Source: Thainema sp. (lineage in GTDB: Bacteria > Cyanobacteriota > Cyanobacteriia > Phormidesmidales > Phormidesmidaceae). Taken from it: DNA of 32,000 nucleotides. The DNA is taken from assembly GCA_052168235.1 (NCBI GenBank), contig JBQLZK010000006.1, positions 1 through 32,000 of the forward strand. The letters run 5' to 3'. This document shows, piece after piece, positions 24,048 to 25,235 of this stretch. The first letter of the stretch is position 1. The number at the start of each line of letters is the position of its first letter. A model generated the notes under the pieces. The model had not been told where the DNA came from, did not search any database, and was given only the letters and a program-made list of their open reading frames with translations. A program made the translations under genes and the position numbers.

Positions 24048-25235
24048 TTAAACACGAGATATTAAAAATGGACGTAATTGTTTATCGATCTCCCTTAAAA
24101 AAGAATTCACCTCAACAGATAAAGATTTAACATGTTCATGACTGATTTCGTGATACTTTCCATCACTATTGCGTCTACCATTCCTGTGAACAATATCATG
24201 GCGAATAATGATTGCCTTGCGTATTCTTGTCGCAGATTCTTTGGGGAACTCAACATTGAGGGTTCCTTTATATAAAGCTTCAACTTTACCAATGCTATGG
24301 AAAGATAATCCAGATAAGTAATCGGAAACCTCTCGCTCTATTACATCCATCCTCTTGAAAATATCACTCAGACTAATTTTTTGATATTGGAATTCTTTAG
24401 TGGTTTCCACAAATAGCCTTAGTTTATCTTCCCGTGAAAGTAATATTTTCGTGAAAATATCTGACAGATAGCTTTCCATTGCTGTAATTATGCTTGCATA
24501 AAGCATTCTATTGAGTGGAGCTTCTAATTCGCGTTTCAAGGTATAAGGGCCATCAATAGGTCGGCTTAATTTATTAATATTTTTGATAGACGCTTTAAAT
24601 TCTTTATAGAAGTCAGTATCAAGATTTTCAATATAATAATTATTTATATCTCTATCTTTTGGTATTTTAGGCCATTCAAAGCATTCGCACTCATCTTCTA
24701 GCCTTTCTACAGCTCTCTCAATAATCTGTGGAGAGGCTTCGTCCCAAAATTTGTCTCTGATGACATCAATGGTTGAATAAGGTCCATCTATAACATCAAT
24801 GTATTCAGAATCTTCAAAATTATTGTTCAAATTGTGTTTGTAAAGAGGTTCAAACTCTGAGAGAAACCAATCCATGATTGATTTTACTGTTTGATGTCGA
24901 AAGTCAGTTTTTCTATGTAAACCATTGCTACTTAAATTATGACGTTTGGAATCTTTTTCTTCTTCCACAAAATGAGGAGAATCCAAATAAAAATATCTTC
25001 CCTTAGAATCTCTATAAAAGTATTTTGTTTTTGAGTAAGATCCTTTTTGATCAAGTCCTTTACAATGCCTTCTGATTTGGCTATTAACAATATGTGTAGG
25101 ATTTTGTGCTTTAAACTAATATAGATTATTTTCTATGATCGTGTGATATATTTTTTTGACCGACATGGGCTTTCCATGTTGAGTCATTACTTCTTTAATT
25201 GCCTCTATTATTGTTATCTTGCCGTTTCTTGCCAT
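24048..25235 (-). pseudogene. wHTH (HARE-HTH/Mrr_N-like) + HEPN-like protein interrupted by one in-frame TAG
   Basis: Hand translation from ATG 25235 gives MARNGKITIIEAIKEVMTQHGKPMSVKKIYHTIIENNLY-TAG(25118-25116)-FKAQNPTHIVNSQIRRHCKG...GRYFYLDSPHF, running in frame into the 312-aa ORF (24048-24986). The C-terminus carries RKAIIIRHDIVHRNG, an R-x4-H HEPN-type motif. Very AT-rich and HIP1-free. Confidence 0.65.

Follow-up and report, generated by a model that had tools for sequence, protein, structure and literature searches.

An In-Frame TAG Interrupts a Three-Domain HARE-HTH–HEPN Gene of a Cyanobacterial Dnd Neighbourhood in Thainema sp.: Probably a Fresh Pseudogene

Introduction

A gene whose reading frame is whole except for one stop codon could be a dead gene, two genes, an error, or a case of regulated read-through. 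This question is raised by a gene of 396 codons (24048-25235, minus strand) in the first 32,000 nt of contig JBQLZK010000006.1 from the Thainema sp. metagenome-assembled genome (MAG) GCA_052168235.1 (positions 1-32,000; hereafter, the window). An initial annotation, made from the letters alone, described it as a winged helix-turn-helix (wHTH) plus HEPN protein of ~396 aa split by a single in-frame TAG, and proposed fresh inactivation, sequencing error or deliberate read-through as explanations. The best explanation, to which we assign a probability of about 0.7, is that this is one three-domain gene (HARE-HTH, HEPN/RES-NTD1-like domain and HEPN) of the cyanobacterial Dnd neighbourhood, that it was recently inactivated, and that it now stands as a fresh pseudogene in an eroding defence island.

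Dnd nucleases fused to modification-reading domains, including restriction endonuclease (REase) plus HARE-HTH, are found immediately downstream of the modification genes and have been proposed to be the true restriction components, and stand-alone HEPN and PIN RNases at the boundaries of Dnd systems have been suggested to serve as backup suicide effectors (Rakesh, Aravind & Krishnan, NAR 2024, PMC10853773). Anantharaman et al. (2013, PMC3710099) defined HEPN/RES NTD1 as a helical module of ~100 aa that occurs in fusions with HEPN, RES and other effectors. A fusion of HARE-HTH and HEPN has no description in the searchable literature, and the supplement of PMC10853773 has no HARE or HEPN entries. 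NCBIfam and PADLOC have no model for the HARE-HTH–HEPN protein, and PADLOC has none for the gene upstream of it, which belongs to family TIGR04096.

Results

One Reading Frame with a Single Internal Stop

Translation of 24048-25235 on the minus strand gives TAG at codon 40 (plus-strand CTA at 25116-25118) as the sole internal stop and TAA as the final one. This agrees with the initial annotation, which had read the frame from the ATG at 25235, and the peptides that it quoted are present, IRHDIVHRNG included. In the NCBI records, the 39 codons before the stop (25119-25235, minus) are an 'HTH domain-containing protein' (MGP1383010.1), and a residual open reading frame (ORF) of 312 aa (24048-24986, minus), which starts with TTG at codon 84 and holds only the NTD1 and HEPN domains, is a hypothetical protein (MGP1383009.1). 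Given the gene's own composition, the 84 codons ahead of the 312-aa ORF should contain 6.8 stops, and one is seen; the probability of one stop or fewer is 0.007 analytically and 0.003 by shuffling. Because this probability is low and homology continues across the stop, the open frame upstream of the 312-aa ORF is not a product of chance.

A search of 5.8 billion proteins found 21 full-length relatives (377-404 aa, 37-71% identity), and the window frame is 61-71% identical over its full length to the intact orthologues P0002-P0008 (389-404 aa). All 21 are single polypeptides with a sense codon where Thainema has TAG, so the proposal of one ~396-aa gene split by one stop holds, and the possibility that the two parts are always separate genes, which the initial annotation had named as its own refutation, does not. 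The stop column is variable among orthologues (Q, T, K, E, N, V, H), and L38, Y39 and F41 around it are invariant or nearly so. The initial annotation had also suggested asking which sense codon orthologues carry at this position. The two closest have Gln, with TAT-CAG-TTC in their DNA vs. TAT-TAG-TTT in the window. Since the closest orthologous codon is CAG, the TAG corresponds to one C>T change.

A Three-Domain Protein Family

The N-terminal domain is a HARE-HTH winged helix (residues ~8-87; 24975-25214, minus) with the signature SQIRRHCKG. PF05066 (HARE-HTH) matches residues 8-61 with 32.7 bits (gathering score 25.9, E = 1e-7) in a match that spans codon 40, and it is found in 21 of 22 family members; the wHTH proposed for this end is thereby placed in a named family. 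The AlphaFold2 (AF2) model has three helices and a beta wing (H9-20, H26-35, H47-57, E72-75 and E81-84). Model confidence (pLDDT) is 63-80 for the helices and drops in the wing. Identity between the N-terminal 85 residues and the HARE-HTH of HARE-HTH–Mrr restriction-type proteins (~270 aa) is 44-55%. According to the AF2 model the TAG falls between helix 2 and the recognition helix. Since the stop precedes the recognition helix and the next in-frame start (TTG, codon 84) lies beyond the wing, no product can keep the DNA-binding domain.

The two-domain description was right about both ends and lacked a middle domain (residues ~113-214; 24594-24899, minus), which, judging by transitive profile search, is probably a divergent HEPN/RES-NTD1-like domain. 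A profile of residues 113-214 (alignment A3) retrieved 249 proteins from 1.84 billion representatives. Most are ~285-310 aa long and have the NTD segment at their N-terminus; others carry it beside PIN_8, KAP NTPase, GmrSD_N, HSDR_N-type REase or STAND/caspase modules. In sampled hits (P0084, P0087, P0111, P0166, P0118 and P0064), Pfam calls the matched region PF18870 HEPN_RES_NTD1.

The C-terminal domain (residues ~215-392; 24060-24593, minus) is a probable HEPN domain of the RiboL-PSP-HEPN family. PF18735 (HEPN_RiboL-PSP) matches 14 of 22 family members over profile positions ~3-191 of 191 (best E = 6.8e-9), several of them above the 28.4-bit cut-off, and phmmer relates the window protein to PF18735-bearing proteins with E down to about 1e-37. 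The predicted catalytic motif, R345-x4-H350 (RHDIVH; 24186-24203, minus), has R345 at 24201-24203 and H350 at 24186-24188. When the window protein is aligned with 35 homologues, the most distant of them ~30% identical, E254, L257, H313, R345, H346, H350, R351 and G353 prove invariant. The earlier HEPN call therefore stands at the level of the family and not for the window copy taken alone. The AF2 model of the HEPN domain by itself is all-alpha with a pLDDT of 92.6, and the highest-probability Foldseek matches, which are non-significant, are 1ylm (YutE/DUF86; probability 0.89, target-normalised TM-score 0.60) and 7ae8 (HEPN toxin). Searching the whole-family profile against PDB sequences gave only spurious S13 matches.

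A Recent Lesion under a Standard Genetic Code

Apart from the TAG, the frame is undamaged, the R-x4-H motif is kept, and divergence is not detectably above that of sister sequences. Compared with two outgroup clades, the window copy has mean identities of 61.6 and 45.9%, and its three nearest intact relatives have 63.7-65.3 and 45.7-46.0%. At highly conserved columns, the window copy has 4 deviations and the control sequences have 0-3. Codons 41-83, from the TAG to the TTG, are conserved as protein, SQIRRHCKG included. Because nothing else in the gene is damaged, the lesion appears to be recent, in keeping with the first of the proposed explanations. The stop is premature, lies within a conserved domain and occupies a position that is a sense codon in all orthologues, as in a nonsense pseudogene.

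A second, independently built assembly (Logan, run SRR33532330) carries this TAG too, within identical flanks. An exact-pattern scan of metagenome contigs, with NNN at the stop codon, found no other copy that could be a sister allele.

TAG terminates 8 of the 22 long ORFs of the window, dnaE among them, and the window encodes no suppressor tRNA, tRNA-Val being its only tRNA gene. On both grounds, the genetic code is taken to be standard. Reassignment of TAG in this organism was considered and is ruled out by its use as a terminator in those eight ORFs. The stop is not conserved in orthologues either, so that neither mark of read-through or recoding is present. The TAG is best read as an ordinary nonsense mutation that recently made this gene a pseudogene.

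Base Composition of the Gene Family

The gene has a GC content of 0.328 (0.26 at third codon positions), compared to 0.50 for the remaining window and 0.53 for the adjacent methyltransferase gene. The AT-richness pointed out in the initial annotation is thus real, but it is not specific to this copy. The orthologous genes all have 33-38% GC in surroundings of 46-52%, even where they are stably linked to a methyltransferase gene of normal GC content, which makes AT-richness a property of the whole family rather than of the Thainema copy. The copies compared were window 24048-25235, L001 612-1781, L004 10001-11200, L005 10001-11140, L007 1541-2722, L010 10001-11167 and L013 10001-11137. Recent horizontal acquisition as the sole cause of the low GC content is ruled out by the same comparison.

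The reported lack of HIP1 sites was also correct and is uninformative. There are 0 sites in the gene and 38 in the window; with 1.4 expected per 1188 bp, the Poisson probability of none is 0.24. The absence of HIP1 therefore carries no weight, and it was discarded as a sign of foreign origin.

Linkage to Dnd Genes

At every one of the ~13 distinct full-length orthologue loci whose flanks could be read, Dnd genes or their relics adjoin the gene, a conserved neighbourhood of the kind expected for a Dnd-associated effector. In the window, the gene is preceded by an intact gene for a DNA phosphorothioation-associated putative methyltransferase of 716 aa (TIGR04096, NCBIfam E = 2e-253; 25268-27418, minus); the earlier label 'methyltransferase-like' was sound and can be refined to this Dnd-associated family. 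As previously stated, the two genes lie 32 nt apart on the same strand (stop at 25268-25270, ATG at 25233-25235). A consensus scan found no terminator-like hairpin in the gap. Given this spacing and the lack of a terminator-like site, co-transcription is plausible.

The gene also follows TIGR04096 directly in Filamentous cyanobacterium CCP2 (L010) and on metagenome contigs L001/L003, L022/L034, L031 and L032. A TIGR04096 relic lies upstream in a Leptolyngbyales MAG (L007/L011) and on the short metagenome contig L008 (106 aa in both), and in Trichocoleus FACHB-591 (L004; 37-45 aa). At the remaining loci (Lyngbya HA4199-MV5, Drouetiella hepatica and contigs L024, L026-29, L035 and L036), the gene comes after the dndE (or dndB) of a dndBCDE cluster. 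There it is convergent with a gene for an ~80-aa stand-alone HARE-HTH protein and with a dndC paralogue, and TIGR04096 lies beyond. The family is tightly and specifically linked to the pair formed by the DndC paralogue and TIGR04096.

This DndC paralogue (~404-412 aa, with an intact SGGKDS PP-loop) is always divergently paired with TIGR04096 in filamentous cyanobacteria, beside canonical dndBCDE. The pair was located in the window, at L005 12088-15667, at L010 5653-9932, and in L013 and L036. No literature on it was found, and TIGR04096 is mentioned in no searchable paper. In the window, the paralogue is an intact protein of 404 aa with the PP-loop/PAPS-reductase fold (PF01507; PADLOC DndC 1.6e-45; 27604-28818, plus). 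It is 79-83% identical to the 412-aa paralogue of L005, L010 and L013 and 27% identical to canonical (Lyngbya) DndC. It scores 144.9 with TIGR03183, below the equivalog cut-off of 290.4. Given this score and the 27% identity, we regard it as a paralogue and not as DndC proper.

The ~80-aa HARE-HTH protein is 62-89% identical among genomes and 29-35% identical to the fused domain. Its gene follows that of the DndC paralogue and faces the HARE-HTH–HEPN gene tail-to-tail (L005 11155-11400, L010 5405-5641, L024 3620-3862, L026 1937-2179 and L036 1705-1947, all minus). Possibly, the protein is a competitor or regulator of the effector.

Outside this family, HARE-HTH–Mrr genes are right beside dndB/C/D in Verrucomicrobiota, Geobacteraceae, Billgrantia and many metagenome contigs; some of these loci also have a TIGR04096-like gene. 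One of them, in Billgrantia azerbaijanica (L019 9983-10815), is itself broken in two: an ORF of 94 aa holds the HARE-HTH and one of 182 aa holds Mrr, and since they have a single base (10267) in common, they lie in different reading frames. It is thus another disrupted Dnd-linked HARE-HTH effector. At L020, only a HARE-HTH of 85 aa remains. NTD1 plus HEPN homologues without HARE-HTH had no dnd neighbours at L039-L041, and none of 161 records of NTD1–HEPN cassettes on conjugative plasmids includes a HARE-HTH.

State of the Thainema Locus

Around the interrupted gene, the Dnd genes of Thainema are incomplete. A dndE homologue is present (30885-31277, minus; PF08870, 74% identical to Lyngbya DndE). 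Of dndD there is only a relic encoding the C-terminal 110 aa, which starts at 31942 (minus) and runs off the window end at 32000. On L021, the Thainema contig beyond the window end, tblastn with Lyngbya DndD residues 544-653 finds this relic with 80% identity at 9007-9336. In the next 9 kb past the window end, dndB, canonical dndC and the dndD N-terminus were not found. The ~80-aa HARE-HTH gene, which elsewhere comes after the DndC paralogue, is absent from the window, and two Uma2 genes take its place. The nonsense mutation is accompanied by other lesions, and the defence island as a whole is eroding.

Other features of the island were noted. The DndC paralogue and TIGR04096 are both intact although dndBCD are gone. 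The ends of the TIGR04096 protein resemble each other (residues ~7-205 and ~505-700, 37% identity in the second BLAST segment), which suggests an unnamed domain on both sides of the methyltransferase core. The Uma2-family genes (putative restriction endonuclease-like, PADLOC PDC-S03/S17; 28808-29482 and 29493-30890, plus) sit between the DndC paralogue and dndE, and the first of them has an overlap of 11 nt with the DndC paralogue, at the 3' end of the latter. An ORF of 208 aa without a Pfam match (31294-31920, minus) is wedged between the dndD relic and dndE, which normally abut; together with the relic it corresponds to L021 9007-9984.

Beyond the window, L021 encodes the N-terminal half of a PLD/HKD plus SF2-helicase protein, a nucleotidyltransferase, an HNH protein and small ORFs. 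The PLD/HKD–helicase (577 aa, PbeA-like, seemingly an N-terminal half) and a 319-aa HNH_2 protein are encoded at L021 3785-5518 and 7029-7988. The latter, 3 kb past the window, has a weak ScoMcrA-SBD match. Both genes are further Dnd/Pbe-type restriction remnants of the same island.

Immediately downstream of the broken gene is a toxin-antitoxin pair, HicB-like DUF1902 plus HicA (23438-23887, minus), with tRNA-Val (22760-22832, plus) ~600 nt further on; these plausibly mark the island edge. Since the tRNA gene lies within the listed ORF 22637-23413, the N-terminal part of that ORF is spurious. A pair encoding a C-5 cytosine DNA methylase and an HNH_2 endonuclease (2207-4752, plus; 39% GC), directly upstream of dnaE, is a second foreign-looking restriction-modification island of the window.

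Discussion

The interrupted gene of Thainema appears to be one member of a Dnd-linked family in which a reader of DNA is fused to a predicted RNase. In an intact family member, the HARE-HTH domain, of a class for which reading of DNA modification has been proposed, would bind DNA according to its Dnd-dependent modification state, and this binding would control or localise the HEPN RNase, with the HEPN/RES-NTD1-like domain as a possible adaptor or sensor. The RiboL-PSP-type HEPN is predicted to be an endoRNase that needs no metal and has R-x4-H as its active site. It may serve the Dnd system as an abortive or suicide effector, by cell arrest or by degradation of invader transcripts. In the Thainema MAG, the change of CAG (Gln) to TAG at codon 40 would cut the frame within the DNA-binding domain and leave no full-length protein. 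RNase activity, sensing of a DNA mark, the role in defence and the link between dnd-gene loss and the stop are all points that we infer.

The Dnd-specific HARE-HTH reader seems to have acquired one of two partners: an Mrr DNase or, among filamentous cyanobacteria, an NTD1–HEPN RNase cassette that already existed. HARE-HTH–HEPN would then be the RNase counterpart of the HARE-HTH–Mrr nucleases found in the Dnd loci of other phyla. The 44-55% identity of its HARE-HTH to that of the Dnd-linked Mrr nucleases points to an effector swapped from DNase to RNase. With respect to the classes of PMC10853773, the family is a new domain-architecture variant of Dnd effectors, combining a class-one reader with a class-two RNase. 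We regard the Thainema copy as a fresh pseudogene in an eroding island because its lesion is recent and because dndB, dndC, most of dndD and the small HARE-HTH gene are missing.

Several observations weigh against this reading. The two assemblies that agree on the TAG may share the same reads, and an error or a minority allele is then possible. The middle domain of the window copy has no direct Pfam match, and the window copy alone has no PF18735 match at E ≤ 0.1. Foldseek searches against the PDB gave no significant match for the full-length model; for the HEPN-only model HEPN proteins were top by probability, none of them significant (E ~1). RNase activity, toxicity and DNA-mark reading of the family are properties that we infer only. 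The 312-aa remnant lacks none of the domains of free-standing NTD1–HEPN proteins, and the cell may still produce it. Finally, the orthologues of Trichocoleus FACHB-591 and the Leptolyngbyales MAG are intact next to nothing but methyltransferase relics, with no dnd genes within 10 kb, so that inactivation is not an automatic consequence of losing the linked dnd genes.

The same two copies, intact without dnd genes within 10 kb, argue against obligatory toxicity. The stop could have been selected as relief from self-toxicity after the loss of dndBCD or of the small HARE-HTH, and it could equally be neutral decay.

A more far-reaching account, in which the DndC paralogue and the ~80-aa HARE-HTH, divergent from TIGR04096 and HARE-HTH–HEPN, form a module of four genes, is tentative and, taken as a whole, rather unlikely. 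Such a module would be restricted to filamentous cyanobacteria and docked onto dndBCDE. Its PP-loop enzyme and methyltransferase would install or elaborate a DNA mark that both HARE-HTH proteins would read, the small one as competitor or antitoxin-like regulator, and an RNase-based abortive response would set in when the mark fails. The Thainema TAG would then have been selected because it spared the cell self-toxicity once dndBCD and the small HARE-HTH were lost.

Among the alternatives to inactivation, a shortened effector is the most probable, though we consider it unlikely. Translation from the TTG at 24986 (or nearby) would give a 312-aa NTD1–HEPN protein whose RNase is uncoupled from DNA or Dnd sensing. 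Residues 35-304 of this ORF align with the free-standing NTD1–HEPN protein P0054 (296 aa) with 35% identity (E = 7e-47), and all catalytic-type and invariant residues are kept in it. Most of the 249 NTD representatives have a comparable layout (~285-310 aa, NTD N-terminal), the cassettes occur on 161 plasmids, and PGAP calls the ORF. Initiation is the difficulty. The start would be a TTG that no orthologue uses, 130 nt past the TAG, with a weak and poorly spaced Shine-Dalgarno-like AAGGGA 12 nt upstream, and no promoter-like site above background was found for the 312-aa ORF.

It is improbable that the TAG is a sequencing or consensus error or a minority population variant, with full-length protein being made. 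The single-base difference from the orthologous CAG, the otherwise perfectly intact gene and the MAG source would all fit an error. Consensus-level substitution errors are rare, the surrounding locus shows independent decay, and the same base within an identical flank in the Logan assembly further weakens this explanation.

Programmed attenuation, by which low-frequency read-through of the TAG would yield traces of a toxic full-length effector, is very improbable. The variability of the stop column suggests that any inserted amino acid would probably be tolerated, and toxic effectors may plausibly be kept at low dose. Deliberate read-through, as the initial annotation had it, nevertheless fails on the other evidence: no orthologue has a stop at codon 40, TAG is a standard terminator in a window whose only tRNA gene is tRNA-Val, and there is no conserved structure or signal around the TAG. 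A TAG followed by T is not known to be a leaky termination context.

That the 39-aa HTH peptide and the 312-aa protein are two natively separate genes can be dismissed in spite of their separate coding sequences at NCBI, since the 39-aa piece breaks off after helix 2 and before helix 3 of one wHTH domain, codons 41-83 are conserved as protein and all orthologues are fused.

It is thus a recently inactivated three-domain gene that we carry forward, and MGP1383010.1 and MGP1383009.1 should become one pseudogene in the annotation. More broadly, a specific HARE-HTH subfamily emerges as a marker of Dnd loci across phyla, occurring with an Mrr DNase in most lineages and with NTD1–HEPN in filamentous cyanobacteria. 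This natural effector swap may serve as a test case for how Dnd systems turn modification state into DNA cleavage or RNA-based abortive infection, and it brings into view the conserved partnership of the DndC paralogue and TIGR04096.

Known systems resemble the family to different degrees. The HEPN–MNT toxin (7ae8) and YutE/DUF86 (1ylm) share the R-x4-6-H RNase logic with the family and are its best structural matches by probability, with a match that is not significant (probability 0.5-0.9, TM-score 0.44-0.60 target-normalised and 0.37-0.47 query-normalised, E ~1); the family has no MNT partner and another domain context. Type IV enzymes of the SBD/wHTH–SRA–HNH type (ScoMcrA-like) also join a winged-helix reader of DNA marks to a nuclease in Dnd loci, but their reader domain is different and their effector is a DNase that cuts phosphorothioated DNA. 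The free-standing HEPN/RES-NTD1 plus RiboL-PSP/MAE_28990-type HEPN proteins (PF18870 plus PF18735; P0026, P0054 and plasmid-encoded WP_163836845.1; PMC3710099) are homologous throughout the middle and C-terminal domains and have the R-x4-H in common, whereas they lack HARE-HTH, are not Dnd-linked and are common on conjugative plasmids.

The HARE-HTH–Mrr proteins of Dnd loci (L016 10001-10831, L017 7030-7851 and P0046) have the same HARE-HTH subfamily, with SQIRRHCKG, and occupy the same position, either right behind dndD/dndE or next to dndB, in some cases together with a TIGR04096-like methyltransferase. They carry a PD-(D/E)xK DNase (PF04471) where the window family has NTD1 and HEPN, and they are ~270-aa proteins of Proteobacteria, Verrucomicrobiota and Desulfobacterota, whereas the window family is cyanobacterial. 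With the HEPN backup suicide effectors of PMC10853773, the family has in common a HEPN RNase (predicted, in our case) encoded in the Dnd neighbourhood. Those effectors stand alone at the boundaries, whereas the HEPN described here is fused to HARE-HTH and encoded immediately downstream of core genes. This position and this architecture are those that PMC10853773 assigns to the discriminating restriction components.

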